A DNA stretch of 52,603 nt from Acidobacteriota bacterium. GTDB lineage: Bacteria; Acidobacteriota; UBA6911; JACQSX01. Shown one piece after another: positions 2,339-52,603 of the stretch. Position 1 is the first letter of the stretch. Each line of letters opens with the position of its first letter. Both the position numbers and the translations under genes were made by a program. Location: contig DASXQR010000208.1 in NCBI GenBank assembly GCA_036507075.1, positions 1 to 52,603 on the forward strand, given 5' to 3'. The notes beneath the pieces are model-generated. The model was given only the letters and a program-made list of their open reading frames with translations, was not told where the DNA came from and ran no database searches.

Positions 2339-2495
2339 GAACCGCCAAGAGCGCCAAGAACGCAAAGAGCGTAAAGATCGCCCTGGCGACTCCTCGGTCT
2401 ATGGGTGCTCTCACGGATACTTTGAAATCATATGCAGGACGCAGGTTGAGAAGAGCCATTTCAGGTCTTGGCGCTCTTGGCGTTCTTGGCGGTTC
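2339..2495. repeat. Inverted 9-mer-array element (GAACCGCCAAGA[GCGCCAAGA]n ... reverse complement)
   Basis: Left arm 2339-2376 and right arm 2466-2495 are complementary and flank a ~90-bp unique spacer. Confidence 0.85.
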
Positions 2496-2503
2496 CGTTT
2501 TTA

Positions 2504-3055
2504 TCAGTGGCCGGCGGTTTTCTTTTGGCCTTCCGCTTCCACATCGAGTGCCTGTGCCAGGCGCGTGACCATGTTGTAAAAGCCGGCAATCGTGGTCAGT
2601 TCGATTATCTGCTGCTGCGTCAGGTGATTCTTTAACTGCTTGAACAGCTCTTCGTCAATGGAAGCGGGATTGCGGGTCACGCCCTCCACCCAGGAAAGCG
2701 CTTCCTTTTCAACGAACGTGAAAAGCTCGCTCTTTTCGTGGTCCTCCAGAGCGGCGATCATTTCATCGCTCACTCCTGCTTTTTTAGCCAGCGGGAGATG
2801 GCTGTTCCGGCAGTAATCGCACTCGTTCAGCTTTGCGACCTTAAGAATAACCAGCTCGCGCGTTTTGTCATCCAGCGAATTGTCGCCCATTACGGCCCTG
2901 AACATGCTGTAGTAACCATCCAGAATGGCCGAACTGGGGGCCAGTGTCTTCGCCAGATTATCCGGTGGACCGCCAAACGTATCTTCATAATCGGAATAAA
3001 CTTGGCGCACGCGTTCCCCTGCTGCGTCAGGCTGCACTGGCAAAAATTTTGGCAT
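2504..3055 (-). CDS. Carboxymuconolactone decarboxylase / AhpD-like peroxidase family protein
   Basis: LDDKTRELVIL..AKLNECDYC..H motif (CxxC). Start placed at MPKFL, with an AGGAAGG RBS upstream. Confidence 0.8.
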   Translation of the reverse strand: MPKFLPVQPDAAGERVRQVYSDYEDTFGGPPDNLAKTLAPSSAILDGYYSMFRAVMGDNSLDDKTRELVILKVAKLNECDYCRNSHLPLAKKAGVSDEMIAALEDHEKSELFTFVEKEALSWVEGVTRNPASIDEELFKQLKNHLTQQQIIELTTIAGFYNMVTRLAQALDVEAEGQKKTAGH

Positions 3056-3147
3056 TGTCGCCGTCCTTCCTTCCTCTGGATTGCAAAACCCGTCTTTATA
3101 CAACGTTGGCGCTGTTTTTTCAGCAAAATTCAGGAAACATGAGGGAC

Positions 3148-3323
3148 TTCACCACAGGTTACACAGCGCGGCAGAGCCGAAACCAAACGCGTCATCGTTT
3201 TGCACGCGAAGCACGGAGCCACGTCCCGCAAGGGCGTGGCGGGGGCAGTGTAAGTCAGCTCGTGTGCCGACTGAGATGGTCTCCGCCACGCCCTTGCGGG
3301 ACGTGGCTCCGTGCTTTGCGTGC
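3148..3323. repeat. Composite palindromic element: CACCACAG arm + GCGGC-n-GCCG hairpin/AACCAAA + 41-bp-arm inverted repeat
   Basis: 3202-3242 pairs with 3283-3323 with one mismatch. 3148-3195 resembles 14363-14410 on the reverse strand. Confidence 0.85.
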
Positions 3324-3426
3324 CATAACCACGGACAACGGACAATACTTTGTTTTCCGGTTGATTCGTGGCATTCTGTACTTTTTCAGGTTTAGAAAAA
3401 TTATTCAACGGAGATAAACTTCTTAA

Positions 3427-6153
3427 ATGAAGGACGCCGTAAAGAACGAACAGGAAGTAAAAAGGGCAGAAGAGTCAGCCTCTGGCAGGGAACAGCAGTC
3501 CGCTGAGCTGGAACGCGCCGAGTTGCGCGAATGGCTTGATTCGCTCGATTATGTGCTCAAAAGCGGCGGGCCGGAACGAGTGCAGAGGCTTCTGCAGGAT
3601 CTCGAAACGCGGGCTTTCCAGGCCGGGGTTCGACTGCCGTTTTCCGCAAATACTCCCTACATCAATACGATTCCGCCCGATCAGCAGGCTTCGTTTCCGG
3701 GAAATCGCGAGATCGAACGCCGCATTCGCAGCCTGGTCCGATGGAATGCCATGGCCATGGTAGTGCGCGCCAACCGCGATGAGCCGGGCATTGGGGGTCA
3801 TATTTCAACCTACGCCTCGGCTGCCACGCTTTACGAAGTCGCCTTCAATCACTTTTTCCGTGCCCGGGGAGAGGATCATATCGGTGATCAGATTTACTTT
3901 CAGGGACATGCCACGCCCGGGATTTACGCCCGCGCTTTTCTGGAAGCACGGATTTCCGTTGAACAGCTCGAGAATTTCCGCCGAGAGCTCAGGAGCGGGG
4001 GAGGGCTTTCGTCTTATCCGCACCCGTGGTTGATGCCTGATTTTTGGGAATTTCCCACCGTGTCGATGGGGCTTGCCCCTATCATGGCGATCTATCAGGC
4101 GCGCTTTAACCGTTATCTGGAAGACCGTGGATTGAAGAAAAGCGAAGGAGCCAAGGTGTGGGCTTTTTTGGGAGACGGCGAAACGGATGAGCCGGAATCT
4201 CTGGGAGCCATCACGCTGGCATCGCGCGAGCGTCTGGATAACCTGGTTTTTGTGATCAACTGTAATCTGCAGCGCCTCGACGGGCCGGTCAGAGGGAACG
4301 GCAAGATCATCCAGGAGCTGGAAGCAATCTTCCGGGGCGCCGGATGGAACGTCATCAAAGTCATCTGGGGCGGCGAATGGGATCCGCTGCTGGAGAATGA
4401 TAAAGAGGGGATACTGGTCAAGCGCATGAACGAGGTGGTCGACGGCCAGTACCAGAAGTATTCGGTGGAGTCGGGGAAATACTTTCGAGAACACTTCTTT
4501 GGCGTCGATCCGCGCCTGCTGCAAATGGTCGAACCGTTCACCGACGAACAACTGCGCAAAGCGCGCCGCGGCGGCCACGATCCCCAAAAAGTTTATGCCG
4601 CCTACAAGGCCGCAGTGGATCATACCGGCTCGCCCAGTGTAATACTGGCAAAGACCATCAAAGGCTACGGATTGGGCGAGGCCGGCGAAGGCCGCAACAT
4701 TACCCATCAGCAGAAAAAACTCAATGAAGATGAGTTGCGGGAGTTCCGGACCCGATTCGCAATTCCCATCTCGGACCAGGAAGTCGCCGAAGCGCCATTC
4801 TACAGACCCCCCGATGACAGCCCTGAAATGAAATACCTGCATGAGTGCAGGCTCAAGCTGGGCGGCTATGTACCCGAGCGAAGAGTCAACTGCCCGCCGT
4901 TGACTGCGCCGCCAGAGTCGCTATTTGAGGAGTTCTACAAAGGAACACAGGGAAGAGAAGCTTCCACTACCATGGTGTTCGTGCGGATTCTTTCCAAACT
5001 GCTTCGCGACAAGGACATTGGCCGGCTGGTGGTGCCGATCGTGCCCGACGAGGCGCGCACGTTTGGAATGGAAGCATTGTTTCGCCAATGCGGCATTTAC
5101 TCTCACGTGGGCCAGCTCTACGAGCCGGTCGATTCGGACAGCCTGATTTATTACAAAGAGGCCAAGGACGGGCAGATTCTGGAAGAGGGAATCACCGAAG
5201 CCGGCTCCATGTCTTCTTTCATCGCCGCCGGCACTGCGTACGCAACGCACGGCGTAAATACGATTCCGTTCTTCATCTTTTACTCGATGTTTGGCTTCCA
5301 GCGAATTGGAGATCTCATCTGGGCGGCGGGTGATATGCGCTGCCGCGGATTCCTGCTGGGCGGCACGGCCGGTCGTACCACTCTGGCCGGCGAAGGCCTG
5401 CAGCATCAGGACGGCAACAGCCACCTGCTGGCTTATCCGCTCCCCAATCTGCTGGCCTACGACCCTGCCTTTGCCTACGAGCTGGCGGTGATCATTCGCG
5501 AAGGCATTCGCCGCATGTATGAGCAGCAGGAAAGCATTTTCTACTATCTCACGGTAGCCAATGAGAATTACGCAATGCCATCCATGCCCGAAGGTGCCGC
5601 CGAGGGTATCCTGGCCGGAATGTATCGCTTCAAATCAGCCGAGCTAAAGGGCGCCGGATTGCAGGCGCAGCTCTTTGGCAGCGGGGCGATTTTGAACGAA
5701 GTGATCAAGGCCCAGGAAATGCTGGCGGAAAAGTACGGTATTGCCGCCGACGTCTGGAGCGTTACCAGCTACAAGGAGCTGCACCGGGATGCGCTCGAAG
5801 CGGAGCGCTGGAACATGCTGAATCCGGATCAGCCCCGGAAGGTTCCCTACGTTACGCGCTGCCTGGCTGAGGCCCCAGGGGTGTTTGTGGCAGCTTCCGA
5901 CTATGTGAAGGCTTTGCCCGACTCCATTGCTCGCTGGATCCCCAGATCCCTGGTTTCGCTGGGAACCGACGGATTCGGTCGCAGTGAAAGCCGCGCCGCC
6001 CTGCGCAATTTCTTCGAGGTCGATGCCAGGTTTGTCACGCTGGCAACACTCACCGCCCTGGCGCGCGAGGGCAAAATTGATTTTGCGCTGGTAAAGCGGG
6101 CAATTCGCGACTTGAACATCGACCCGGAGAAGCTGGATCCGATGATTTCATGA
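3427..6153 (+). CDS. aceE: Pyruvate dehydrogenase E1, homodimeric type
   Basis: GGHISTYAS, YPHPWLMPDFWEFPTVSMGL, TPP motif GDGETDEPE...NCNLQRLDG, GEGLQHQDG; 908 aa. Confidence 0.97.
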   Translation: MKDAVKNEQEVKRAEESASGREQQSAELERAELREWLDSLDYVLKSGGPERVQRLLQDLETRAFQAGVRLPFSANTPYINTIPPDQQASFPGNREIERRIRSLVRWNAMAMVVRANRDEPGIGGHISTYASAATLYEVAFNHFFRARGEDHIGDQIYFQGHATPGIYARAFLEARISVEQLENFRRELRSGGGLSSYPHPWLMPDFWEFPTVSMGLAPIMAIYQARFNRYLEDRGLKKSEGAKVWAFLGDGETDEPESLGAITLASRERLDNLVFVINCNLQRLDGPVRGNGKIIQELEAIFRGAGWNVIKVIWGGEWDPLLENDKEGILVKRMNEVVDGQYQKYSVESGKYFREHFFGVDPRLLQMVEPFTDEQLRKARRGGHDPQKVYAAYKAAVDHTGSPSVILAKTIKGYGLGEAGEGRNITHQQKKLNEDELREFRTRFAIPISDQEVAEAPFYRPPDDSPEMKYLHECRLKLGGYVPERRVNCPPLTAPPESLFEEFYKGTQGREASTTMVFVRILSKLLRDKDIGRLVVPIVPDEARTFGMEALFRQCGIYSHVGQLYEPVDSDSLIYYKEAKDGQILEEGITEAGSMSSFIAAGTAYATHGVNTIPFFIFYSMFGFQRIGDLIWAAGDMRCRGFLLGGTAGRTTLAGEGLQHQDGNSHLLAYPLPNLLAYDPAFAYELAVIIREGIRRMYEQQESIFYYLTVANENYAMPSMPEGAAEGILAGMYRFKSAELKGAGLQAQLFGSGAILNEVIKAQEMLAEKYGIAADVWSVTSYKELHRDALEAERWNMLNPDQPRKVPYVTRCLAEAPGVFVAASDYVKALPDSIARWIPRSLVSLGTDGFGRSESRAALRNFFEVDARFVTLATLTALAREGKIDFALVKRAIRDLNIDPEKLDPMIS

Positions 6154-6191
6154 TGTTGAAACCTGGCTGAACTTTCATACTGCAATCGAAT

Positions 6192-7619: not shown

Positions 7620-7626
7620 AAAACGG

Positions 7627-7769
7627 GAACCGCCAAGAACGCAAAACCGAGCCGCCAAGAACGCTAAGACCGCAAAGTATCTAAAGCAAGGAAAGCGTGA
7701 ACGACTCGCCTGCTTCTATCGAATGAACGATATCGAGGTCTTCGCGCTCTTTGCGTTCTTGGCGGTTCC
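7627..7769. repeat. Inverted 9-mer-array element between convergent genes
   Basis: GAACCGCCAAGAACGC... left arm and ...TTTGCGTTCTTGGCGGTTC right arm; same family as 2339-2495. Confidence 0.85.
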
Positions 7770-7777
7770 GTTTTGCG

Positions 7778-8560: not shown

Positions 8561-8718
8561 ATGCCTCCGGTAACAGCTATGTTACCCTAAAGGTGCCTGT
8601 CTTATCCACCTTAATCAGATGGGTTTAAGCGCTTTTGGGTTCACAATATATCGTGGCCCATCCAAAGCCTTGCAGGCGGGCAGGAACTTACCATCAATCA
8701 CATGAAACAAAGAGGTTT

Positions 8719-9480: not shown

Positions 9481-9487
9481 TAGAAGT

Positions 9488-9817: not shown

Positions 9818-9893
9818 GTTAAACCTTTCGTCGGAACTGAAAAAACTCGACTATACCAGATCGGGACAGGCGCGTTCAACAGAGATGGGGGAT

Positions 9894-9970
9894 TTCACCA
9901 CAAAGGAGCCAGATGAGCGGACTCTGCCGTTCGGTCGTCTTCCTTCGTGTTCTTTGTGCCTTTGTGGTGA
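9894..9970. repeat. Inverted 8/9-mer-array element (TCACCACAAAGG ... CCTTTGTGGTGA)
   Basis: Terminal 12-bp inverted repeat with extra CTTCGTG/CTTTGTG units on the right arm. Confidence 0.75.
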
Positions 9971-13881: not shown

Positions 13882-14017
13882 CCGGAGAATTTCACCACAA
13901 AGCCACAAAGATCACCAAGAACCAACCTCCAGGCAGGCGCACCTCTTTTTCCCAGCATCAGTCTGGGAAAAAGCCTGTACCACTAACTGCGAGAATTGAC
14001 TCGCGAAGAAAAACTTT

Positions 14018-14238: not shown

Positions 14239-14326
14239 TTTGTCTTTTTCTTTTGATGTGATTTCCGCTCTGTAACACTCTGTAACCTCTTGGCGATTTC
14301 TTGTTTTTTAGCGAGATTCTTTAACG

Positions 14327-14368
14327 AATGACCAATGACGAATGACTAATGACCAATGACCAATGACG
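14327..14368 (+). repeat. Tandem heptamer (AATGACn)x6
   Basis: aatgacc aatgacg aatgact aatgacc aatgacc aatgacg. Confidence 0.95.
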
Positions 14369-16123: not shown

Positions 16124-16450
16124 TTATTCCCTCGCCTCGATTACTGCCAGCACTTTGGCTATCCTTGAAGTCAACACGCCATAAGGCCGTTCGCCGTAAT
16201 CGTCGCTGCATTTGTCGTCAGCTTCCTCCAAAGCCGTGAGTGCTTCCCGCAGCGCCTCAAACATTTCCGGTGCTGCCGCGATCAGGCGTGCATTGGCGTA
16301 CTGTTGGTGTTCCTGTGTTGCCTCGACTAGAGAAACCACCGCGATCCAGTGACCTTCCAGTGTCTCTATTCCTGCAAATGCGAGTCTTTTGTGCCGCTCG
16401 TCAATGCACACCCGCCACGGCCCCGGCGTAAACCCAATTCTCTCGCTCAT
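16124..16450 (-). CDS. Phage-type hypothetical protein
   Basis: FTPGPW...ANARLIAAAPEMFEAL signature typical of small phage proteins; GAGGGGAG RBS. Confidence 0.75.
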   Translation of the reverse strand: MSERIGFTPGPWRVCIDERHKRLAFAGIETLEGHWIAVVSLVEATQEHQQYANARLIAAAPEMFEALREALTALEEADDKCSDDYGERPYGVLTSRIAKVLAVIEARE

Positions 16451-17011
16451 TGGGTGTCTCCCCTCTACGCAGGCCGAAATAGTCTGAATGTGTTGAGCGC
16501 TGGTTTGACCGCTGGATCTTTAACGTTCTTCACGGTTCGCTGTGACTTGAGCGCACACCAGCACGCATTCAGCATCGATTTTCCCGTCTTTACATCCCCG
16601 TGCGATTGCCGCGAACTCAACTGACCAGGAAGCGACTAACAGGCGTCAAACGGCAGTACTCCTGCACCTGCCAGAAGGCTTGGCACACTCAGCCTCTTTA
16701 AGGGAAATTAATGTGTTTGTTTGTAAACTGTGATGTCGTTACGCAAGATCCATGCCCGACATCCAACATGCTTGTTATGAGCTAAGAATTCCATCACGGA
16801 GGCCGTAAATCCGAGGGTGGGAGTGGGTGTCTCTAATTCAGCGAAGAAGGTTCGAGAACTTTAGCTATACAGCGGAGCGTCAAAAAAATGCCGACTAGTC
16901 ACAAAATATTGTCGGATGCGGTGAACATAATGTACCCTTCTCCATCCGTTCCGATCTGGGCACCACACCGTTACGCACCCGGCTCCGACATGGGCAGAAG
17001 CGGCGCAAGCT

Positions 17012-18300: not shown

Positions 18301-18342
18301 TTCACCACAGGGACACAGGGGACACAGTGTCCCTGTGGTGAA
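18301..18342. repeat. Short hairpin of the CACCACAG family
   Basis: 16-bp perfect inverted repeat TTCACCACAGGGACAC / GTGTCCCTGTGGTGAA. Confidence 0.85.
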
Positions 18343-19648: not shown

Positions 19649-19700
19649 GGGGTGTTCTTATCGTATTTCTGTAATTTTTTCAACGCCTTGGAAGGGGAAA

Positions 19701-19869
19701 CCACGAAGGCACGAAGACACGAAGTTCTTAAACCCTCAACTAGAAGTAACGCTCTAGTAGAGCTAACACGCTGGCCGAGGTAACACTCCGGCAACAGCTA
19801 AAAGGAGCTTAATTAAGAAGTACCACTTTCAGTCTCAATCATGCCCTTCGTGTCTTAGTGCTTTCGTGG
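19701..19869. repeat. Inverted 8-mer-array (CACGAAGn) element with internal AGAAGT-like boxes
   Basis: Arms 19701-19724 and 19846-19869; degenerate boxes at 19742 and 19816. Confidence 0.85.
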
Positions 19870-19967
19870 GAAAGAGTTACAGGGTCGGACATCGATTCAC
19901 AAAGTTGATTTTTGCGGTACTGGAGCTAAAGTCAAATCGGGGGGTTTTTAGAATCGAGGTCGAATCT

Positions 19968-20632: not shown

Positions 20633-20688
20633 TGCCACGAAGACACGAACACGCGAAGGGACAGGATTCAGCCAGAAGTGGCACTTCT
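20633..20688. repeat. Left arm of the 8-mer family plus perfect AGAAGTGGCACTTCT palindrome
   Basis: TGCCACGAAGACACGAACACGCGAAG, then the box at 20674-20688; no matching right arm found. Confidence 0.8.
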
Positions 20689-20826
20689 TAAGTAATTCCC
20701 TTGGCTGTTGCCAGAGCCAAGCCATGCGCGACTACCGCGCCGGAAAAACCAGGCGCAAGCCGTCACCCAGACGGTCGCGCGCCACATCTCGGGCACTAAA
20801 ACGCGAAGGACACAGCGCTGCCTCCC

Positions 20827-21104: not shown

Positions 21105-21216
21105 CCACAAAGGCTTAGGGCGGCGAAGCCGCAACCAAAAGTCAAGGAGAGACGGCCTGAGGGTCGTCTCTCTGCGGTGTACTGGCTAGCTGAGACGACC
21201 CTCAGGCCGTCTCTCC
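21105..21216. repeat. CCACAAAG arm + GCGGCGAAGCCGCAACCAAA hairpin + 25-bp perfect inverted repeat
   Basis: 21146-21170 pairs exactly with 21192-21216. A further imperfect hairpin lies at about 21051-21101. Confidence 0.85.
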
Positions 21217-21232
21217 GCTCCCGAGGAATGGT

Positions 21233-23040: not shown

Positions 23041-23081
23041 CTTTTCCCAAGTGTCGCGAAATCGCGAGCTCTAATTCAGGC

Positions 23082-23135
23082 GCAGAGACGCGGCATGCCG
23101 CGTCGAAGCTCTGACGCGACATGTCGCGTCTCTAC
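23082..23135. repeat. GTAG-type REP doublet
   Basis: GCAGAGACGCGGCATGCCGCGTC-n8-GACGCGACATGTCGCGTCTCTAC; second copy at 43041-43094. Confidence 0.85.
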
Positions 23136-24909: not shown

Positions 24910-25036
24910 TTCAGGAAGTTTAACAATGTCATCGCTCTTGCGCCACGGTGAACGAACGTGCACAATCAGATTAGTGCAGAGCAGGCCGAGGCTTCGAAGT
25001 ATGGCGATGGGACAGACCATCGAGATTTCTCTCGCA

Positions 25037-25143
25037 GAATGCGGAATGGGGAATGCGGAATGCGGAATACAGAATGCAGCCACAAAACTGCTTGCCGACA
25101 GATCATTAATTCCGCATTCCGCATTCCCAAATCCGCATTTGAA
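25037..25143. repeat. Inverted (GAATGCG)n / (CGCATTC)n heptamer arrays in the recN-tolQ divergent region
   Basis: About 6 degenerate heptamers, a short spacer, then about 4 complementary heptamers. Confidence 0.9.
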
Positions 25144-28617: not shown

Positions 28618-28687
28618 CTTTTGTGCCCTTTGTGTCTTTGTGGTGAAAAAATACGATCCACCACAAAGACACAAAGAACACGAAGGG
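28618..28687. repeat. Back-to-back 8/9-mer arms inside the tol-pal operon
   Basis: CTTTGTGTCTTTGTGGTG-n-CACCACAAAGACACAAAG. Confidence 0.85.
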
Positions 28688-28702
28688 ATTCGGAGGAGAC
28701 TA

Positions 28703-29501: not shown

Positions 29502-30347
29502 ATGTATCGTTTTTGGACCTTCCTTTTTGCGCTTGGGTTGTGCACCGCTCTCGCCACGGCGGGAACCAAAGAGGAGTTGATTCGCCTGCAGAGTGATGTG
29601 CTGCAGCTCACCAATCAGTTGCAGCAACTGCAGAAGAGTACTACGGAAAATGATGCCGTCCTGAGAACGCTGCTCGAGCAGTTGAGCGACCGTGTAGCTT
29701 CGCTGAAGTCCTCGCTTGACACTTTGAACCAAAACCTGAGCCAGAATCTGACGCAAATACTTCAGACCAGCCGGGCGGACAATAAAGGCATGGCCGAGCA
29801 GTTGTCGCAGGCCGTGCAGAGCCTGTCGCTTAAGCTTGACGATACCAACAGCCGAATAGGAACGCTCTCGCAGAAATTCGAAGAAAACAAGCAGCGGACG
29901 GAAAAACTCACCAGCCCGATGCAGGCGGGCCCCAACGTTCCTCCCGACCAGTTGTACAACGCGGCCTACAACGATTACCTGCTGGGCAACTATGATCTGG
30001 CAATTCAGGCTTTCCGGGATTACCTGCAGCGATTCAACGCTTCCGAATTGGCCGATGACGCCCTTTATTACATCGGAGTGTCGTTTTTCGATCAAAAGAA
30101 GTACGAGCAGGCCATCCAGTCATTTGATCAACTGATCCAGCTCTATCCCAGGGGCAACAAAACGCCCACGGCGTATTTCAAAAAGGGAATGGCATTCCTG
30201 GCAATAGAGAAAACCGGAGACGCGATTACGCAGCTTCAGTATGTTTATGCCAATTTTCCCGGCACCCCGGAGGCCAATCTGGCCGAGCAGGAACTGAGAC
30301 GGATGGGAGTAGAACCGGCTGCCCGTCCGACGGCACGCAAAAAATAG
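29502..30347 (+). CDS. cpoB: Tol-Pal-associated TPR protein CpoB/YbgF
   Basis: Signal peptide, coiled coil and C-terminal TPRs; directly after pal. Confidence 0.88.
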
Positions 30348-30400
30348 TTTCGCAGATTTCAAAACTGGCCAGTTATGTGTGTCAGGAGGAGGTTAAAAAT

Positions 30401-30835
30401 ATGTCTTCGGTCAACAAAGTAATTCTAGTGGGAAGGCTGGGGAGAGACCCTGAGGTGCGCTATACGCCGTCGGGAGCACCGGTTGCCAACTTTTCTGTGG
30501 CCACCGACGAGGTCTGGAAGGACAAAAGCGGTGAGCGGCAGCAGCGGACCGAGTGGCACAACATCGTCGTCTGGAACAAGCTGGCGGAGATCTGCGGCCA
30601 GTACCTGACGAAGGGAAAGCTGGTTTACCTGGAAGGACGCATCCAGACTCGCGAGTATGACGATCGTGACGGCAACAAGCGAAGAATTACCGAAGTTATC
30701 GTCAGCGATATGGTGATGCTCGGCAGCAAGGCGGAGGGAGGAGGGACTCCCAAGGAGAGCCCTCGCCAGCCCGTACAAAGCGTGGCGGAGACGACAGCCG
30801 ACGTCGGCATCACCGACGACGATATTCCGTTTTGA
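30401..30835 (+). CDS. ssb: Single-stranded DNA-binding protein
   Basis: [16 protein letters not shown]...TEWH...DDDIPF; AGGAGG RBS. Confidence 0.97.
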
Positions 30836-30866: not shown

Positions 30867-30990
30867 TTGCCACGAAGACACGAAGGGCTAACGGTCCTGT
30901 TTGACGCGACACTCTGCCCGACCCAGATCAGTGAGAAGTGTCCGTCTGGAGCTAAATCGAATTCTGCGGGCCTTCGTGGCTTCGTGGCAA
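30867..30990. repeat. Inverted 8-mer-array element
   Basis: TTGCCACGAAGACACGAAGG ... CCTTCGTGGCTTCGTGGCAA; the right arm overlaps the permease 3' end. Confidence 0.88.
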
Positions 30991-32301
30991 CTTTCCCGCG
31001 GATCGGCCGGCAAGGTACAGGACAACTCCCGCACCCGCCGCCGTTAATCCCAGAACAAGCTGCTGCTGTTGCATGCTGGCGATCAGCCAGATCGAGCAGG
31101 CGGTCGCCGCGATCGGCAGGACCCAACCGCCGGGAAGTTTCAGAGGCTCAATTCCGGACTCGGAAGGTCGCCGCCTCAGGAAGGGCAAAGCGGCGCACAC
31201 ACCCACATAGCTGACCAACCGCGCCACGGCGGCCAACCTTCCCATCTGGGCGAAATTCCCGGCGTAAGCAAAAGCCAGCGCACAAGCGGCGGTAAACAGA
31301 ATGGAAACATGAGGCGTGCGAAAATTGTGATGCACTTTACCGAAGACCTTCGGGATGTCTCCTTCTGCGGCGAACGCATACAGCATTCGCGGACCGGCCA
31401 GCATCAGACCACCGCACGTTCCGGTAATTGAGAGCAGCGCAGCCAGCGTAATGCCTCCTCCGCCTGCCCTCCCCAATAGCCTTTCGGCGGCCGAAGCAAT
31501 GGGAGTGCGGGAATTCTCGATCCCGGGAAAGATCCCGTAGGCAACAAGCTGGATCAACACATAAAAAACCGTAACAAAGCAGATGGTAAATAACAACGCT
31601 GCAGGCAGCGTGCGCTGCGGGTCTTTGATTTCTTCGGCCGGAATGGCCACGATTTCCCAGCCGGTCAAAGCAAAAACCAGCAGCAGCGTAGCTTCCCCCA
31701 GAGCGTCTCCGCTTCTCAGCGTGGTTCCCTGGTAACGCTGCCAATCGACAAAAAATAACCCGACAACTATGAAAAGCGACAGCGGCAGGATCTTTGAAAC
31801 AGTCAAGGCATTCACCACTGTTTTTCCATATCGCACACCCACAACATTCATCACCGTTACGAAGGCTATGAGAATCACAATGGCAATCATCTTTTGCGAC
31901 CCGCCCGCAGGGGGCCAGAAGTAGCCCAGATAAGTGGAAAACCCATTGCTGAGCGCTGCCAGTCCGGTGATGCGCGCCAGCCATGTCATCCATCCAACCT
32001 GAAACCCGACGAATCTGCCGAATACGGGGCGCGTATAAACATAAGGCCCGCCCGTTAGCTGGATCCTGCTGGCCGCTTCGGCAAAGCAAAGCACGATCAG
32101 AGCAATGGCCCCGCCGGCGATCAGATATGCCCAGATTCCAGCCGGGCCAAGCAGCCTTGATACGTCGGCGGGTATCAGGAAGATGCCGGCTCCCACTACT
32201 CCGTTGACTCCCGCCGCGGTCAGGTCCAGCGTCCCCATGGCACGAACGAGCTTTGGCCGAGCTTCAGTAATAGAAAACCCCCTGCTGCGAAGATTTGCCA
32301 C
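30952..32301 (-). CDS. APC-family amino acid permease
   Basis: G..VGAGIF..P, FAE......GG.YVY, GWE......EE..DP.R..P; about 12 TM. Start uncertain (GTG 32301 lies within a repeat arm). Confidence 0.92.
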   Translation of the reverse strand: MANLRSRGFSITEARPKLVRAMGTLDLTAAGVNGVVGAGIFLIPADVSRLLGPAGIWAYLIAGGAIALIVLCFAEAASRIQLTGGPYVYTRPVFGRFVGFQVGWMTWLARITGLAALSNGFSTYLGYFWPPAGGSQKMIAIVILIAFVTVMNVVGVRYGKTVVNALTVSKILPLSLFIVVGLFFVDWQRYQGTTLRSGDALGEATLLLVFALTGWEIVAIPAEEIKDPQRTLPAALLFTICFVTVFYVLIQLVAYGIFPGIENSRTPIASAAERLLGRAGGGGITLAALLSITGTCGGLMLAGPRMLYAFAAEGDIPKVFGKVHHNFRTPHVSILFTAACALAFAYAGNFAQMGRLAAVARLVSYVGVCAALPFLRRRPSESGIEPLKLPGGWVLPIAATACSIWLIASMQQQQLVLGLTAAGAGVVLYLAGRSAGKLPRSHEGPQNSI

Positions 32302-32420
32302 GAAGTCACGAAGAGCGCCAATTCACCTTCAGGCAAATCTTGTGCTCAGTCTCCGTAGGTTCCCATACTGCCACTTCTAAGGAAATCGCTAGACTTCGTA
32401 CCTTCGTGTCTTCGTGGCAA
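32295..32420. repeat. Inverted 8-mer-array element
   Basis: Arms 32295-32313 and 32394-32420; partial box TGCCACTTCT ending at 32378. Confidence 0.88.
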
Positions 32421-32456: not shown

Positions 32457-33194
32457 CTAGAACCGATAGCCGGCCTGGCGCACCGTCATCCGGAAATCTT
32501 CGCCTTCAAGTTTTATCACCTTGCACATTTCGTAAAGGCGGCTTCGCAGGCGCTGTCCTACGCGGTCGGTAAGCGTTTCTTCACGCCGCATTTGAGGATC
32601 TTCAGAACGGGTTTCTGGGGACCTATCCGGGAAATTGGAAGTGAAAATCGTAACACGTTTGTCGTTGTATCGGGAATTGATGATGTGGGTCATCGTGTCC
32701 TGCACCCACGCGGTGGGTTTGTTTGCGCCCAGCTCGTCCAGCACCAGTAATTCGGCTTCCAGCACGGGACGCAGGATCTCAAGCTCTGAGGCTTGTGAAA
32801 CGGGATCCCAGGAATGCTGAATGTCGCGCAGCAGATCGCGAAAGTCGTAAAAGAGTCCTTTCACTCCCTGTTCTATCAATTCCTTGAGCACTGCCACTGC
32901 CAGGTGGGTCTTCCCTACCCCGCAGGAGCCGATGAACAGAACTCCACCTTCGCGCTGGGGATGAAAGTCAGCGACGAATTTCTGGCAAATCAGTTTGGCG
33001 ACTTCCTGCGAAGGGTGCTTCGGATAATAATCCTCCAGCGTGCAATGCTCGTAGCGGGCGGGAATCCGGGCGGCCTTGACGCGGGCCAGTTTGCCCCTTT
33101 CAACAGCGCAGTCGCAGCGGCGCACAGAATTGCCGGATTCATCGAGCCGCCACCCGGTGTCGTTGCAGGCAGGACAACTGTCGAGTTCAGGCAT
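32457..33194 (-). CDS. DnaC/IstB-like AAA+ ATPase with N-terminal Cys cluster
   Basis: CPAC..TGW...RCDC, IPARY, Walker A GSCGVGKTHLA, Walker B LLVLDELG, SRLYEM. Confidence 0.88.
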   Translation of the reverse strand: MPELDSCPACNDTGWRLDESGNSVRRCDCAVERGKLARVKAARIPARYEHCTLEDYYPKHPSQEVAKLICQKFVADFHPQREGGVLFIGSCGVGKTHLAVAVLKELIEQGVKGLFYDFRDLLRDIQHSWDPVSQASELEILRPVLEAELLVLDELGANKPTAWVQDTMTHIINSRYNDKRVTIFTSNFPDRSPETRSEDPQMRREETLTDRVGQRLRSRLYEMCKVIKLEGEDFRMTVRQAGYRF

Positions 33195-33210: not shown

Positions 33211-33343
33211 TTGCCACGAAGCCACGAAGTCACGAAGGGAATGATTAAGCCCGAAGTGACACTTCTCATTCAATCTCTGTGCTCCTGCCAGAGTGTCACT
33301 TCTAATCGAATTGTCAAACTTCGTGCCTTCGTGGCTTCGTGGC
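33211..33343. repeat. Inverted 8-mer-array element with two internal palindromic boxes
   Basis: Three units per arm; boxes CGAAGTGACACTTCT (33252-33266) and CAGAGTGTCACTTCT (33289-33303). Confidence 0.9.
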
Positions 33344-33355
33344 ATTTTCACGGCA

Positions 33356-37316: not shown

Positions 37317-37347
37317 GGAATTGCCTGCTGAGAAAGATTCAAAAGCG

Positions 37348-37497
37348 GAACCGCCAAGAACGAACACCAAGGCGACAAAGGATCTAATGAGATTTACCGC
37401 TCGCAAACATTAAGAAACACGCGAGAAGTACAACATCGAGCCTACTGGCACCTAACTAATATCAATTCCTTGGTGTTCTTTGCGTTCTTGGCGGTTC
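37348..37497. repeat. Inverted 9-mer-array element between kinase and regulator genes
   Basis: GAACCGCCAAGAACG ... CGTTCTTGGCGGTTC. Confidence 0.85.
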
Positions 37498-37501
37498 AGT
37501 T

Positions 37502-39502: not shown

Positions 39503-39682
39503 CAGTTTTCGGGTTTACGTGTTACGATTTCAAAAACGGTTCAAGCGTTTACGGGTTACGATTCCAAAAAAGGGTTCAAGGGTTTACGTGTTACGGGTTG
39601 CGGGTTCTGGACGGCACGTTAAATCGTGGATGACTTGCACGCTTCTTAACTCGTAACCCGAAACCCGGAACCCGAAAAACTG
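39503..39682. repeat. Inverted heptamer-like arrays (CGGGTTn / AACCCGn) containing a 34-35-bp direct repeat
   Basis: Near-complementary ends CAGTTTTCGGGTT / AACCCGAAAAACTG; direct repeats 39511-39544 and 39545-39579, plus a partial third. Confidence 0.85.
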
Positions 39683-41660: not shown

Positions 41661-41764
41661 CGAATGCGGAATGCAGAATGCGGAATATAGTCGAACTTAA
41701 TTCTTCAAAGCAGACCAAATTGCCTCGCTATTCCCCATTCCGCATTCCGAAGTCCGCACTCGAG
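41661..41764 (-). repeat. ~104-bp heptamer-armed element, copy 1
   Basis: Its reverse complement aligns ungapped to 46530-46633 with 14 mismatches in 104 (manual count). Confidence 0.9.
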
Positions 41765-43930: not shown

Positions 43931-43998
43931 AGGAGTAGAAATGTCGGAGCCAGGGCATGATGTCCAAAATCGGAATTGTCGGAGGCGGTCAAGGTGTG

Positions 43999-44102
43999 TT
44001 CACCGCAGAGCCGCAGAGAACGCCGAGTTTCCGCAGAGTTCCATTACAAACTCTGCGTTGAATTCGAAAACCCGAAACCCGCAACTCGAAAACCCGCAAC
44101 CC
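43999..44102. repeat. CACCGCAGAG 8/9-mer arm followed by an (AACCCGn) heptamer array
   Basis: TTCACCGCAGAGCCGCAGAGAACGCCGAG..., then aaaacccgaaacccgcaactcgaaaacccgcaacc. Confidence 0.8.
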
Positions 44103-44105
44103 TGC

Positions 44106-46616: not shown

Positions 46617-46633
46617 TCAGCAATCCGCATTCC
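46530..46633 (+). repeat. ~104-bp heptamer-armed element, copy 2
   Basis: Inverted homolog of 41661-41764; overlaps the PIG-L 5' end. Confidence 0.9.
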
Positions 46634-46657
46634 GAACTTAAGGTTATCTGAGAAAAA

Positions 46658-47877: not shown

Positions 47878-47937
47878 TCAACAGCCCAAGGATACCAATA
47901 CACCTATGGCGTTTGGAAGACTGACAGTACCCATCGA

Positions 47938-48029
47938 AATGACAAACTGCTATTCTTGCGCTTATCTTCGTGGTCTTTGTGTCAATGACAAACTGCTATT
48001 CTTGCGCTTATCTTCGTGGTCTTTGTGTC
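47938..48029 (+). repeat. Perfect 46-bp tandem duplication
   Basis: AATGACAAACTGCTATTCTTGCGCTTATCTTCGTGGTCTTTGTGTC at 47938-47983 and 47984-48029. Confidence 0.95.
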
Positions 48030-48074
48030 TTTGTGGTTGATTTCTTTCACCACGAAGACACAAAGATCACAAAA
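48011..48074. repeat. Back-to-back 8/9-mer arms in the tsaB-mutS divergent region
   Basis: TCTTTGTGTCTTTGTGGT-n-CACCACGAAGACACAAAGA. Confidence 0.85.
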
Positions 48075-48112
48075 AGGGCATCAAGCAAATTCTTTCTACT
48101 CCGGTTTGCGAC

Positions 48113-50611
48113 ATGACAGACGATTCATTGACCCCGATGATGCGCCAGTACCGGCAGATCAAACAGGAACATCCGGATGCGCTGCTTTTCTTTCGGCTGG
48201 GCGATTTTTATGAAATGTTCTTCGAAGACGCTCTACTCGCCGCCCGCGAGCTGGAGATTACGCTCACTTCAAGGAATCGAGACAAGAACGGCATTCCGGT
48301 CCCCATGTGCGGCGTGCCCTACCATTCTGCCGCCGGCTACATTGTTCGCCTGATCCAAAACGGACACCGGGTCGCCATCTGCGAGCAGGTGGAGGACCCT
48401 CGCACCGCGGTGGGCATCGTCAAGCGCGAGGTGATCCGCGTGATCACTCCCGGCACGCTGCTCGATGACCTGGCGCTGGAACCCAAGAGCCACAATTACA
48501 TCGCATCGGTCCACCTGATGGAGGGTTCGGCGGGTGTCGCGCTGGCGGATCTCTCCACCGGTCACTTCGTGCTCAGCGACTTTGTGGGCGAACGCGCTCA
48601 GCAGGAACTGCTTTCGCTGATCTCTTCCTTTCAGCCTTCCGAAATTATCGTTCCCGAATCGCAGAAGCAGCGACTGCTGCAGAGTAAGCTGGTCGAATTG
48701 CCCTGCATCAGCGCCGCAGACGAGTGGACTTTCCACGCCGATCGGGCCCGTTCGGACCTGCAGGATCAATTTCACCTGGCAACGCTCGAAGGCCTGGGAA
48801 TTCCCTCAGGCAGCCTGGCAGTGCCGGCAGCGGGCGGGCTGCTTCAATACCTGAGAAAGACGCAGAAGTCGGCGTTGGAACACCTGCGCCTTCCCTCTTA
48901 TCTGCACAAGACGGATTTCCTCCGCATCGATTCCATCAGCGCAAGGAATCTGGAGTTGGTGCAATCTGTGGACGGCCTCCGAAAGTGGACCCTTTTTTCT
49001 GTCGTCGACTTCACCCAGACCGGCATGGGAGGGCGACTCTTGAAGGAATGGCTGCTCAGACCAAGCCTCAAACTGGACACGATCCAGCGACGCCAGGATG
49101 CTGTCGAGGAGCTCGCGGGCAACCTGATACTGCGGCGCGAGCTCTGCGATCAGCTTTCGGCAGTCCATGACCTGGAGCGGCTCCTGTCAAGAGTCGTGTT
49201 GGGTGTGAGCACTCCGCGCGAAATGGCAGGCCTGGGGATTTCGCTCAAGCAGCTCCCAAAAATCAAGGGCAGCCTCTCGCAGGCGCAGTCGCACCTGCTC
49301 GCTTCAATGGCGAGCCTGGATACGCTTGATGACACTTCCCAACTGCTGGAAAGAGCGCTGGCAGACGATCCCCCCCTTACCGTTCTGGACGGGGGCGTGA
49401 TTCGCGACGGTTATCATAATGAGCTTGACGGCCTTCGAAGCATTCGCCGCGACGGCAAGAGCTACATCGCATCAATAGAGAGCCGGGAACGCGCACGCAC
49501 CCGCATTTCTTCATTGAAAGTAAAGTACAACCGCGTCTTTGGATACTTCATTGAAGTGACGCGATCGCAACTGCACCTGGTGCCGGGCGATTTCATGCGC
49601 AAGCAGACTGTTGCCAACGCGGAGCGATTCATCACCGCCGAGTTGAAAGAGTACGAGGAAAAGGTGCTTACGGCAGAAGAGCGAATTCTCGACCTGGAGC
49701 GGGAGTTGTTTGCGGATTTGCGCGCGAAGGTGGCGGCGGCCCATGCGCGTATTCAGGCGAGCGCTTCGGCGGTGGCCGAGCTGGATGCCGCCGCCGCCCT
49801 GGCGGAGGCAGCGCACCGTTACCGGTATTGCAGGCCTGTGGTGGACGATTCCACGGTGATTGAAATCCGCAATGGGCGACATCCGGTGCTCGAGCAGCGC
49901 GATGATCAGCCGTTCACTCCTAATGATTTCTACGCCGACACGAAAACGCATCAGGTGCTGATCATTACCGGTCCGAATATGGGAGGAAAATCTACTTTCC
50001 TGCGTCAGAACGCGCTGATTGTGATCCTGGCCCAGATGGGTTCCTTTGTTCCCGCAGACTCCTGTCGTGTCGGATTGGTGGATCAGATTTTCACTCGCGT
50101 TGGCGCCTCAGACAATCTGGCGCGCGGCCGCTCCACCTTCATGGTGGAAATGATCGAGACGGCAAACATCCTGAACAATGCCACTACCCGAAGTCTGATC
50201 CTGCTCGATGAGGTGGGAAGAGGGACAGCGACCTTCGACGGGCTTTCCATCGCATGGTCGATCGCCGAATTCCTGCACAATGACCCGTTGCGCAAAGCCA
50301 AGACCATCTTTGCCACGCACTACCATGAGTTGACGAAACTGGAGCGTTTGTATGATGGCGTAAAGAACCTTTGTGTCACGGTCAATGAAGCCGGAGATGA
50401 CATCGTGTTTTTACACAAGGTGATGCCGGGAAACGCGGACAAGAGCTATGGCATTGAGGTGGCCCGTCTGGCGGGACTGCCGCAGCCGGTTTTGCGGCGC
50501 GCACGAGAGATTCTCAAGAAGCTGGAACGAAAAGAAATCGACCTTTCCGGTCAGTCGCGAAGCAGGACCACGGACGACGTGTTGACCGAAATCCAGAAGA
50601 ATCTCTTTTGA
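48113..50611 (+). CDS. mutS: DNA mismatch repair protein MutS
   Basis: TPMMRQY, FRLGDFYEMF.EDA, ITGPNMGGKST, STFMVEM, DEVGRGT, FATHYHEL. Confidence 0.98.
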   Translation: MTDDSLTPMMRQYRQIKQEHPDALLFFRLGDFYEMFFEDALLAARELEITLTSRNRDKNGIPVPMCGVPYHSAAGYIVRLIQNGHRVAICEQVEDPRTAVGIVKREVIRVITPGTLLDDLALEPKSHNYIASVHLMEGSAGVALADLSTGHFVLSDFVGERAQQELLSLISSFQPSEIIVPESQKQRLLQSKLVELPCISAADEWTFHADRARSDLQDQFHLATLEGLGIPSGSLAVPAAGGLLQYLRKTQKSALEHLRLPSYLHKTDFLRIDSISARNLELVQSVDGLRKWTLFSVVDFTQTGMGGRLLKEWLLRPSLKLDTIQRRQDAVEELAGNLILRRELCDQLSAVHDLERLLSRVVLGVSTPREMAGLGISLKQLPKIKGSLSQAQSHLLASMASLDTLDDTSQLLERALADDPPLTVLDGGVIRDGYHNELDGLRSIRRDGKSYIASIESRERARTRISSLKVKYNRVFGYFIEVTRSQLHLVPGDFMRKQTVANAERFITAELKEYEEKVLTAEERILDLERELFADLRAKVAAAHARIQASASAVAELDAAAALAEAAHRYRYCRPVVDDSTVIEIRNGRHPVLEQRDDQPFTPNDFYADTKTHQVLIITGPNMGGKSTFLRQNALIVILAQMGSFVPADSCRVGLVDQIFTRVGASDNLARGRSTFMVEMIETANILNNATTRSLILLDEVGRGTATFDGLSIAWSIAEFLHNDPLRKAKTIFATHYHELTKLERLYDGVKNLCVTVNEAGDDIVFLHKVMPGNADKSYGIEVARLAGLPQPVLRRAREILKKLERKEIDLSGQSRSRTTDDVLTEIQKNLF

Positions 50612-50621
50612 GAAAAAACAT

Positions 50622-50775
50622 TTCCACCACGGAGGCACAGCCCCAAATGCGGATTTTGGAATGCGGAATGCGGAATAGGGAGTGATTTGGGTTCGGCTTC
50701 GAAGATTTGAGTTGAAAATTATTCCGCATTCCGCATTCCGCATTCCGCATTTGGTACTCTGTCTCTGTGGTGAAA
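50622..50775. repeat. Heptamer-armed element (copy 3, 50643-50754) nested between CACCAC.GAG arms
   Basis: Outer arms 50622-50640 and 50757-50775; the inner spacer resembles that of 46530-46633. Confidence 0.88.
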
Positions 50776-50801
50776 GCGTTCTATCAGTATAGAGGCCCCT
50801 G

Positions 50802-52511
50802 TTGCCGCTGCGCTCTCGAACCTTAACCTTCCTTTTAATATGCTTCCCTTATTTTCTCAATCTCGGCGTCTCATCAATCTGGGACGCCAATGAAGCATTG
50901 TATGCGGAGACTTCCCGCGAAATGCTGGAAAGCGGCGATTTTCTGCACCCACAGTTCAATGGTCAGCCCAGAATTCAAAAGCCACCTTTGACTTACTGGG
51001 TCATTGCCGCAAGTTACGCCGCTTTGGGTGTAAGTGAGTTTTCGACCCGCTTTCCTTCCGCGCTGGCGGTGGCAGGTCTTTTCCTGTTTATCATCCTCGG
51101 CCTGGGTCGAATTTCGGCGGCTTGCCGCGCTGCGGCCGTGTACAAGGTTGATCCCGAGGCTGGACTTCCCGTCAACGGCGTAAACGGCTTCACAACAGAG
51201 ACGGCGCTGCTGGCGGCGGCGATACTCGCCACCGTACCCCGATTTTTTATCGTGGCGCGCCGGCTTCCCATTGATTGTCTCTTTACAGTGTTTTTGACCG
51301 TTTCCCTGCTGCTGGTGATGTGGGGCTCCTGCCGCCCGTGGATGCCAGGCCGCAGCGCAGTCAACATACGGATCTGGCTGGCGGCCGGTTTTTTGGCCGG
51401 CCTCGCCGTTCTGACCAAAGGCCCCGTTGCAATCGTGATCGAAGTATCGATTGCGGCGTTGTTTGCGCTTGCAGAGAAGAAATGGCCATGGAGGAACTAT
51501 CTTATCTGGGCTGGGGCGGTCGTGCTGGTAGTGTTTCCCTACTATGCAGTCCTGGCGGCGCGCGGAGAATCGGGCGCCATCTGGAGTTTTCTTTTCAAGG
51601 AAAACCTCGGCCGCTACACGACCCTGGTCTTTGGACCGTCCCGGAGCTCCTTCTATTACTTTCGTATCCTGTTCGCGGATGCCTTCCCCTGGAGCTGGTT
51701 CCTGCCCGCGGCTGTTTATTACTTCCACCAGGTTCGAAAAGCGCACGGCGGCCTGATTCCCGGCGGCCGGATGACGCGCTTTTGCGCCATCTGGTTTACG
51801 GTGATATTTGTGCTGTTCAGCATCTCGCGCAACAAGCAGGAGTACTACATTCTGCCCGCTTATCCGGCGATGGCGATTCTGCTTGCCTGGTATTTCCAAG
51901 GCGGCTCAGCACGCGCTCTGACCAGTTTAAAGATTACGGCGCGTATGCTGGCAACCATGTTCTTCTTGCTGGCGGGATCATTGTTGTGGCTTTCGGCAGT
52001 TTTTCACATCGGAGTGGCGGGCTGGGTGATACCTGCGCTGCTGCTAGCCGCCGCTTCGTTTCTCTGGTTTCGTCCGGAGCCTCCGGCGCTCGCGGCCGGA
52101 ACCCTTGCCTTGTTGCTGTTGCTGGCAATGGTAGATGTGTGTGTGACGTTTTTGCCGGCACTGGAATTCCTCCGACCGGCCAGGCAACTGGCACAACAGA
52201 TTTCAGGACGCCTTGGTCGCGGAGATCGCGCGGGCTATTTCCGATACACCAGCCCGAGCATGGCATTCTATTTGAGGCGTCCTATTCTGGAGTTGTATGA
52301 AAACGACGAGTTGCAGCAGGCGATGGCTGAGCCGGGTAGACTCTTTTTGCTGATGGAAGCGCAAACCTACGAGAACCTGCCTCAAAACTTGAAGTCGCAG
52401 CTTTCAATCATGAATACAGCGGTCCGGATTCCCACGCGAGCCGCAGATTTTTTCAATTTCACGCGATCGAGAGAGCTGCCCCGACTGCTGGTTGTGGCGA
52501 AAGAGGAGTGA
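50802..52511 (+). CDS. ArnT/PMT-like (GT-C) glycosyltransferase
   Basis: D.NE..YAE.SREM..SGD...P..NG.P...KPPL.YW, LTKGP, SRNK..YYILP.YP; many TM helices. Confidence 0.92.
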   Translation: MPLRSRTLTFLLICFPYFLNLGVSSIWDANEALYAETSREMLESGDFLHPQFNGQPRIQKPPLTYWVIAASYAALGVSEFSTRFPSALAVAGLFLFIILGLGRISAACRAAAVYKVDPEAGLPVNGVNGFTTETALLAAAILATVPRFFIVARRLPIDCLFTVFLTVSLLLVMWGSCRPWMPGRSAVNIRIWLAAGFLAGLAVLTKGPVAIVIEVSIAALFALAEKKWPWRNYLIWAGAVVLVVFPYYAVLAARGESGAIWSFLFKENLGRYTTLVFGPSRSSFYYFRILFADAFPWSWFLPAAVYYFHQVRKAHGGLIPGGRMTRFCAIWFTVIFVLFSISRNKQEYYILPAYPAMAILLAWYFQGGSARALTSLKITARMLATMFFLLAGSLLWLSAVFHIGVAGWVIPALLLAAASFLWFRPEPPALAAGTLALLLLLAMVDVCVTFLPALEFLRPARQLAQQISGRLGRGDRAGYFRYTSPSMAFYLRRPILELYENDELQQAMAEPGRLFLLMEAQTYENLPQNLKSQLSIMNTAVRIPTRAADFFNFTRSRELPRLLVVAKEE

Positions 52512-52546
52512 AGCACTCTTCAATACCAGCCGAGCCGCGCGCGGAT

Positions 52547-52603
52547 TTGCCACGAAGCCACGAAGACACGAAGGACAACGATTGAATTAGAAGTGCCACC
52601 TCT
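52547..52603. repeat. Left arm of the 8-mer family plus AGAAGTGCCACCTCT box (cut by the window end)
   Basis: Arm 52547-52573; box 52589-52603. Confidence 0.85.

Follow-up and report, generated by a model that had tools for sequence, protein, structure and literature searches.

Introduction

Numerous bacterial genomes have an excess of heptamer repeats, which has been noted without an explanation (PMC4692102). Here we analyse intergenic hairpin elements with arms of tandem 7-, 8- or 9-nt units in a stretch of 52,603 nucleotides (the window), which is contig DASXQR010000208.1 (C208) of the 6.1-Mb genome of an Acidobacteriota bacterium (GCA_036507075.1, here G000), together with two families of small proteins, GxxExxY and the TIGR02436 four-helix bundle, whose genes lie between arms of the same kinds. 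The closest described systems are the REPINs, hairpins formed by doublets of repetitive extragenic palindromic (REP) sequences, and their RAYT transposases (PMC3116915, PMC5581495, with further background in PMC3686654). As far as the available parts of these papers describe them, they share with the elements studied here the extragenic hairpin doublet as a unit, the presence of several families per genome and the tie of each family to a flanked partner gene. We also found no target duplication, and a link to competence has been reported in Escherichia coli (PMC5581495). In contrast to the short palindromes of REP arms, the arms here are tandem arrays of 7-9-nt units, and the flanked genes encode a predicted PD-(D/E)xK-fold protein and a four-helix bundle, whereas the RAYT genes of this genome have their own repeats. 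Multicopy extragenic hairpin doublets with preferred spacing are present, but the inspected Y1 genes, which are led by the promoter-like motif described below, have other palindromes at their sides and not the tandem arrays.

In Geobacter metallireducens, hepta- or octanucleotides repeated three to five times in tandem form pairs, with the partners on opposite strands and a variable distance between them; these sites are multicopy and species-specific (PMC2700814). Opposite-strand pairing of multicopy tandem 7- and 8-mers at variable distance is also found here, but the Geobacter sites were read as regulator binding sites, and the accessible text of that report draws no link to GxxExxY, four-helix-bundle genes, a period rule or competence. 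In the intervening sequence (IVS) of the Coxiella 23S rRNA gene, a four-helix-bundle open reading frame (ORF) of the S23p type lies in the loop of a stem with tandem heptamers (PMC4990558, from the part available). Here, a heptamer-bearing stem with such an ORF is found in the filled cassettes alone. Both these cassettes and the related gene-less elements are located between protein genes, and they occur in hundreds and without RNA-strand bias. The window elements do not interrupt an rRNA gene; the assembly of the 23S gene in this genome starts at model position 1237. Xanthomonas and Nostoc (PMC4692102) and Beggiatoaceae (PMC4679880) also have abundant 7-nt arrays between genes, close to gene ends and in some cases paired in inverse orientation, with an unexplained origin. 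These were treated as G-quadruplex or protein-binding sites, with one unit family per study and, in the text available, no partner gene named. In literature largely outside subscription journals, we found no report joining such arrays to GxxExxY genes, four-helix-bundle genes or competence.

Miniature inverted-repeat transposable elements (MITEs) are short, gene-less and multicopy and have inverted ends. The elements of this genome likewise have terminal inverted repeats without coding capacity, but we found no target-site duplication and, among the genes seen inside such arms, no related transposase. A reverse transcriptase (RT) adjacent to template and variable repeats, as in diversity-generating retroelements (DGRs), is also missing, the RT genes and the four-helix-bundle genes being on different contigs. 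The elements work like REPINs but do not qualify for the REP-RAYT, MITE and IVS classes. In the reading that we favour, with a probability of roughly 0.45, they are DNA hairpins of a non-autonomous kind, which partner proteins recognise according to unit period and which move as single-stranded DNA (ssDNA) during transformation.

Results and Discussion

Paired arrays and loop families across the genome

The whole genome contains 1,231, 736 and 443 arrays of periods 7, 8 and 9, respectively, compared with 22-229 for periods 5, 6 and 10-12. De-duplication left 2,355 arrays, with 197 inside long ORFs (92% outside). In the first 2 Mb, arrays of the three periods numbered 428, 249 and 122, versus 3, 6 and 6 in shuffled sequence. 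An earlier note on the window, made from its letters alone, had expected arms to be paired above chance across the genome, and this is what we observed: inverted neighbours at most 300 bp apart numbered 573 against a permuted mean of 59 and a maximum of 78 in 100 permutations, with 100 direct neighbours against a permuted mean of 58.5. The shuffled and permuted counts exclude chance. Only 1,144 of the 2,355 arrays belong to a detected pair.

With the A-rich arm first, spacer lengths peak at about 46 bp (period 7), 80 bp (period 8) and 95 bp (period 9). Comparison of 466 spacers gave 212 singletons and grouped the remainder into families, for which profile searches found 65 copies (the loop of the window element at 33211), followed by 54, 21, 20, 13 and 7; nhmmer searches with single seeds from the loops of the 9-mer elements 2339 and 37347 and of 19700 found no further copies. 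Since the nearest-neighbour identity within the 65-copy family has a median of about 0.80 (maximum about 0.98), its expansion is mostly not recent. No target-site duplication above the cross-pair control was detected in 59 of the 65 copies of this family, the only one tested, with ends set by a 10-nt word. Elements were also seen nested within other elements (at 50625 in the window) and within REP-like hairpins. The genes found inside paired arms encode GxxExxY, the four-helix bundle and a few unknown proteins.

These loops bear directly on the idea that the arrays are neutral by-products of slippage and template switching which arose independently at each site. Unit number does vary by slippage in one contig and half of the arrays are unpaired, but non-repetitive loops common to up to 65 sites largely refute this explanation, and it is also at odds with the stereotyped spacer lengths and polarity and with the tie to two gene families. 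We give it the slimmest chance of all the alternatives.

Turnover at orthologous gaps

The nearest genomes available for comparison (G001, G002, G003 and G005 below) belong to other genera of the same family and are about 70% identical in genes. The gap between lptF and cmd holds a 9-mer element in G000 and 7-mer elements in G001 and G002, and the recN/tolQ gap has other 7-mer families in G001, G003 and G005 and none in G002. Between dnaC and htrA there is an 8-mer element in G000, a 7-mer element in G001, a 6-mer element in G003 and none in G002. The tolB-pal gap contains an element in G000 alone and is short in G001, G002, G003 and G005, the 46536 element is missing from the same gap in G001, G002 and G003, and the mutS-arnT gap, which holds the nested element 50625 in G000, has a length of 1 and 0 bp in G002 and G005, respectively. 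The miaB-recN gap of G005 is occupied by a four-helix-bundle gene together with a 7-mer array. In G001 this gap contains a 9-mer hairpin without a gene, in G000 it contains a REP-like element, and in G003 it is 27 bp long. Orthologous gaps are thus filled by other elements, by a gene-bearing cassette or by nothing, as would be expected of the non-autonomous, dispersed elements that the earlier note had proposed. These differences are between genera and do not amount to insertions observed between strains. A search of 60 relatives did not detect the loop of the 65-copy family, with arm-only matches in three of them, and the loop families are lineage-specific. Taken together, the elements are very probably mobile non-autonomous DNA, and likely selfish.

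Alternatively, rather than being mobile units, the arrays could have accumulated by drive as host binding or uptake signals, comparable to DNA uptake sequences or to the "global regulator sites" proposed in Geobacter. The number of arrays and their location outside long ORFs, the link to the uptake regulon described below and the interpretation of paired tandem 7/8-mer sites as regulator sites by Aklujkar 2009 (PMC2700814, in the part available) are in line with this, but it does not account for many unrelated unit families in one genome, for the copying of whole elements with conserved loops or for the exchange of families at the same gap among relatives, and we regard it as highly improbable.

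Partner genes and the unit period

A tblastn search of G000 identified six GxxExxY loci and seven four-helix-bundle loci, most of which are enclosed by the same kinds of arms, with several truncated. This supports the earlier note, in which similar arrays often flank both kinds of gene. The two families differ in unit period, which is an addition to that note, as is the motif of the next section. Among 151 four-helix-bundle loci, which like the GxxExxY loci are best matches to subfamily alignments and are not phylogenetically independent, 128 have period 7 and five have period 8 or 9. Period 7 was found in 27 of the 31 loci from relatives of the class and from this genome, 69 of the 80 from metagenomes and 32 of the 40 on viral contigs. 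Conversely, period 7 is absent from the 108 GxxExxY loci, which show period 8 or 9 in 59 cases, other periods in nine and no array in 40. As a control, the flanks of dprA had no array in 22 of 27 cases. In 50 of 79 cross-phylum GxxExxY loci, the two flanks align with each other as inverted repeats (score of at least 32), versus 12.9% of cross pairs. The 102 heptamers comprise 75 distinct units, which have little in common apart from a G with a purine before it (4.1 bits versus 3.2 in controls); the 8- and 9-mer units have a tighter common core. A functional pairing of each partner protein with a unit period is therefore probable.

The structure model of GxxExxY (predicted local distance difference test score, pLDDT, of 97) matches PD-(D/E)xK folds, with Cas4 SSO0001 as the top match (Z 8.0, root-mean-square deviation 3.4, 96 aligned residues) tied with restriction-type folds. 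Residues E22, E72, K74, Q86 and Y90 are invariant, D62 is 90% conserved, and the E-x-K and QxxxY motifs are present. Judging from this model, GxxExxY is a predicted nuclease of the PD-(D/E)xK fold; no solved structure matching it by sequence was found. A match of the four-helix-bundle protein is XCC0516 (2gsc, five chains), for which a homopentamer has been described (PMC4990558, in the accessible part).

The earlier note had further suggested that the window elements could be empty forms of such cassettes, and this was not supported; the genome has only the six GxxExxY and seven four-helix-bundle loci given above. Against 148 cassette-bearing loci, the loop profiles of the abundant gene-less families gave no matches apart from a marginal one (E 0.04) and a profile that itself contains arrays, and genuine deletion derivatives, which retain the promoter, arms and a gene stub, are few (C152, C82 and C192). 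Since their loops do not match cassette interiors, the gene-less families are sisters of the cassettes with a shared arm grammar, not simple deletions.

In two relatives, dprA is immediately followed by a truncated GxxExxY gene (G001:C383 8799-10006 and G003:C73 3250-4430). On C28 of G000 (572-2368), a pair of paralogous coiled-coil genes and a gene for an ERCC4/XPF-type nuclease possibly represent more cassette cargo; all three have a motif site of their own, with repeats nearby.

A promoter-like motif shared with competence genes

The cassette genes share a bipartite motif with ssb in the window and with comEA, comEC, comF, comM, dprA and recA, that is, with genes of DNA uptake and recombination, as expected of a competence regulon. 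A matrix of this motif found 58 sites of at least 30 bits in the genome, followed by a steep fall, and none of at least 16 bits in the shuffled genome. The genes after these sites encode, by Pfam, ComEA, ComEC, ComF, ComM, DprA, RadC, a pilin, RecA, RecG, RecQ, UvrD, an ERCC4 nuclease and nine Y1 transposases; no family was assigned to 12 of the 39 motif-led proteins scanned. Those without a Pfam family on contigs C48, C97, C43, C83 and C87 (motif sites 9, 13, 14, 22, 27 and 45) are candidate new competence genes. A matrix built from 12 host genes only, whose training sites were first found by a pattern from the cassette genes and ssb and which is thus not fully independent, gave 61 sites of at least 20 bits against none in the shuffled genome and recovered the sites of five of the six GxxExxY and six of the seven four-helix-bundle loci at 17.8-41.8 bits.

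Within the family, sites resembling the ssb motif also occur upstream of ssb in G001, G002 and G003, the motif precedes six of seven GxxExxY loci of the relatives at 25 bits or more, and it stands 218-221 nt ahead of the DprA domain in four of four genomes (6-34 bits). In some other families of the class it is visible by eye with a variant downstream box. We infer a promoter function for the motif, and a candidate that probably reads it is the extracytoplasmic function (ECF) sigma factor beside recG, which with its zf-HC2 anti-sigma factor lies among four motif sites on C17. This region (about 64246-73700, L065) carries recG, an rsmD-like gene and CHAT/TPR, anti-sigma, ECF sigma and XRE-type genes, and is a candidate competence control locus, with orthologues of the sigma factor in the class.

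A weaker resemblance was noticed at the ends of 9-mer elements such as 2339-2495 of the window. Facing outward, 36 of 206 ends have a motif-like sequence of at least 5 bits, versus none facing inward and one in shuffled sequence; these are far below true sites, and could seed competence-dependent transcription or be coincidence.

The presence of Y1 genes in this set bears on the main rival explanation, in which all hairpins would be moved by Y1 (HUH) transposases of the RAYT/IS200 type, in line with the proposal made for REPINs, while the genes for GxxExxY and the four-helix bundle would be mere passengers in the loops. By tblastn with the motif-led genes themselves as queries, the genome has 19 Y1-like loci, of which 12 have the motif within 450 nt and two more start at a site. 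The missing target duplication and the frequent position of array elements at the centre of REP-like hairpins agree with Y1 action, and E. coli RAYT is reportedly induced with competence (PMC5581495, citing Sinha 2009, in the part available). However, the repeats that flank the inspected Y1 genes are GC-rich palindromes specific to these genes and not tandem arrays. In addition, the passenger model leaves the strict match of period and gene family across phyla unexplained, and we consider it unlikely.

Action on DNA or RNA

The earlier note had left open whether the elements fold as ssDNA or RNA. Folding as ssDNA was found for 15 of the 16 two-armed elements of the window (z of -3.3 or lower against dinucleotide shuffles), the sole weak folder being 39505 (z -1.5). 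On the sense strand of 204 co-directional elements across the genome, G.T and A.C mismatches are equally frequent (221 versus 229, p 0.74), and this absence of a sense-strand bias of wobble pairs points to action on DNA; selection on the RNA strand was rejected on these counts. Loops of the 65-copy family are oriented with transcription in 11 cases and against it in 18. Elements occupy 100 of 416 convergent and 50 of 420 divergent gaps (p 6e-6), and the latter led us to reject a reading as terminators only. In 153 of the 204 co-directional gaps, it is the upstream stop codon to which the element is closer (median 17 versus 53 nt). The bias to stop codons and convergent gaps fits promoter avoidance and a role at 3' ends alike.

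These positions could nevertheless reflect action at the RNA level as in the 23S rRNA intervening sequences, where RNase III would cleave the long stem, or the four-helix-bundle pentamer would bind it, making the insertion harmless or setting mRNA stability. The Coxiella IVS has heptamers in the stem, an S23p ORF in the loop and RNase III cleavage (PMC4990558, in its available part), and the median number of units in the arms that enclose four-helix-bundle genes is 4.4-4.5, close to the five subunits of the pentamer. Neither the wobble pairs nor the loop orientation show the strand bias that this would entail, the position bias equally fits plain promoter avoidance, elements are present in divergent gaps, and no route is offered for copying 80-bp loops to 65 sites; we therefore find this explanation quite improbable. 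Spread via RNA and an RT, aided by an Avd-like four-helix-bundle protein, has a very slim chance. The four-helix-bundle protein does match the DGR Avd model, at 40 of 80 bits and thus below the cut-off, but the genome has one full RT and one RT fragment, both read as group II intron-like and not beside cassettes, and there is no strand bias.

Proposed mechanism

In the favoured reading, non-autonomous hairpins would be recognised in trans by two small proteins according to unit length, the four-helix-bundle protein reading 7-mers and the predicted nuclease GxxExxY reading 8- and 9-mers. During competence, these proteins would encounter incoming ssDNA and bind the folded arrays on it, GxxExxY would cut, and annealing by host DprA/RecA via the multi-register arrays would place the hairpin in a new gap or within a resident element. 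Such placement would leave no target duplication. For this bacterial family, the chances of action on ssDNA during transformation are evenly balanced, and GxxExxY plus host recombination as the mover is a tentative and rather doubtful assignment. It is somewhat unlikely that the elements represent an undescribed, widespread class of mobile DNA without a transposase. In such a class, recognition would depend on the period more than on the sequence, with 7-mers read by a pentameric four-helix bundle and 8/9-mers by a minimal Cas4-like nuclease, and the host natural-transformation machinery would insert the elements.

Several observations weigh against the favoured reading. The enzymes proposed to act on the arrays are candidates, and the gene-less loops share no homology with the interiors of the cassettes. 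The 7-mer arrays, with 1,207 members the commonest class, have as their partner a four-helix-bundle protein of no known catalytic activity, and therefore need a further one. No four-helix-bundle locus was found with the exact unit of the commonest 7-mer family of the window, two viral loci being one mismatch off. No empty alleles were seen among strains in runs X2-X6, where X2 represents almost the same strain and coverage of the window by the remaining runs is thin. Y1 transposases, which are proven ssDNA enzymes, carry the same motif as the cassette genes, and the host-gene matrix depends in part on the cassettes. Upstream of the seven four-helix-bundle loci of the family relatives, the motif site is strong in three, weak in three and absent in one. 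The motif before the anti-sigma gene is strong in G000 only and not conserved in most orthologues, which makes the sigma factor assignment weak. The link to competence holds in this bacterial family and is not general, because an upstream same-strand ORF ends at most 90 nt away in 41 of the 79 cross-phylum GxxExxY loci and no shared motif was seen by eye upstream of dprA, comM and GxxExxY in 30 more distant genomes, where start codons were script-chosen and weak motifs could be missed.

Elements and other features of the window

The window carries housekeeping genes (pyruvate dehydrogenase, recN, tol-pal, ssb, mutS and others). Between them we counted 22 array sites (Table 1), in agreement with the more than 20 of the earlier note, whose named arrays are all present. 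Its grammar of an array, a spacer and the inverse array describes 16 of these sites, while six are half or cut and the 7-mer family of 14324 has no paired copy in the window. Spacers reach about 120 bp, as that note had stated. The two-armed sites occur in 10 co-directional, four divergent and two convergent gaps, confirming that they are not simple terminators, and two pairs (28618 and 48012) are flipped, with the T-rich arm first. As also noted before, no transposase or recombinase family was detected among the 41 window ORFs at E <= 1e-10, where 12 ORFs have no family; the elements gave no Rfam matches. Contigs from a second study span six elements without change (19700, 30867, 32296, 33211, 37347 and 39505), and these are therefore not assembly artefacts. 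One contig of run X3 has an additional 8-nt unit at 32298, with a depth of 3.3, so it may be an error.

Table 1. Array sites, motif and ssb gene of the window (z, ssDNA folding against dinucleotide shuffles; strand as reported)
Feature	Position	Strand	Arms	Remarks
9-mer-armed hairpin	2339..2495	.	both	co-directional gap, LptF-type permease gene / CMD-family gene; z -6.5
9-mer-armed hairpin	7627..7768	.	both	convergent gap after aceF; z -5.2
8-mer-armed hairpin	9894..9970	.	both	divergent gap upstream of dksA-type gene; z -3.3
Solo 8-mer arm	13893..13922	.	half or cut	no fold
Solo 7-mer array, 6 units	14324..14367	.	half or cut	unit family also flanks four-helix-bundle gene on G000:C225
Minimal 8-mer hairpin, nearly loopless	18301..18342	.	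both	z -8.6
8-mer-armed element, 65-copy loop family	19700..19870	.	both	divergent gap; spanned by run X2 contig
Left arm and partial loop, 65-copy family	20633..20720	.	half or cut	incomplete element
7-mer-armed hairpin	25034..25140	.	both	recN/tolQ divergent gap; z -10.8
8-mer hairpin, reversed polarity	28618..28690	.	both	tolB/pal gap; z -8.3
Competence-type promoter-like motif (A-tract, TTTCGCAGATT, 11 nt, CAGTTATGT)	30336..30378	+		upstream of ssb; same motif before cassette genes
ssb	30401..30835	+		PF00436; member of motif-defined regulon
8-mer-armed element	30867..30990	.	both	convergent gap after ssb; z -7.7; spanned by X2
8-mer-armed element	32296..32420	.	both	intergenic; variant unit number in one run X3 contig
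8-mer-armed element, seed of 65-copy loop family	33211..33346	.	both	z -13.3
9-mer-armed element	37347..37498	.	both	co-directional gap; z -7.4
7-mer-armed element	39505..39680	.	both	35-bp repeat in left arm; z -1.5; unit family flanks four-helix-bundle gene on G000:C73
7-mer-armed element, 43-bp loop (13-copy loop family)	41662..41760	.	both	
Decayed composite: 8-mer arm, then solo 7-mer array	43998..44105	.	half or cut (sites 43998 and 44068)	z -2.8
7-mer-armed element, 43-bp loop	46536..46636	.	both	
8-mer hairpin, reversed polarity	48012..48073	.	both	tsaB/mutS divergent gap
Nested: 7-mer-armed hairpin within 8-mer arms	50625..50775	.	both	mutS/arnT-like gap; z -11.7
Left arm and loop start of 65-copy family, ended by contig end	52547..52603	.	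half or cut	

The loop of the 65-copy family (33238-33318) contains two self-palindromic words of 13-15 nt about 22 nt apart, resembling paired operator sites. An exact 46-bp tandem duplication at 47938-48029 takes in part of an 8-mer arm; among the contigs listed, none from another run spans it, and it may be an assembly artefact. Three other families of REP/REPIN-like palindromic elements lie at 3200-3315, 21140-21220 and 23080-23135, the latter two being of types also found beside Y1 genes or remnants elsewhere in the genome. An IstB-like ATPase (32457-33194) is syntenic in relatives and was read as a DnaC-like loader. A short ORF on the minus strand (16124-16450) has no Pfam match at 1e-10 and adjoins a long non-coding stretch (16450-17010). 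The yfhO-mqnC interval measures about 3.1 kb in the window against 0.2-0.5 kb in three relatives, indicating a lineage-specific insertion.

Significance

TIGR02436 and GxxExxY are common orphan families, and the rule that connects unit period with protein family makes the repeats and the families one testable question. The shared motif indicates when movement might occur and outlines a full competence regulon in an uncultured family of Acidobacteriota. If a nuclease does read hairpin geometry, GxxExxY would be a very small structure-selective enzyme, and if the elements are a transposase-free class of mobile DNA, this would explain the known excess of heptamer repeats in bacteria and give two orphan protein families a role.

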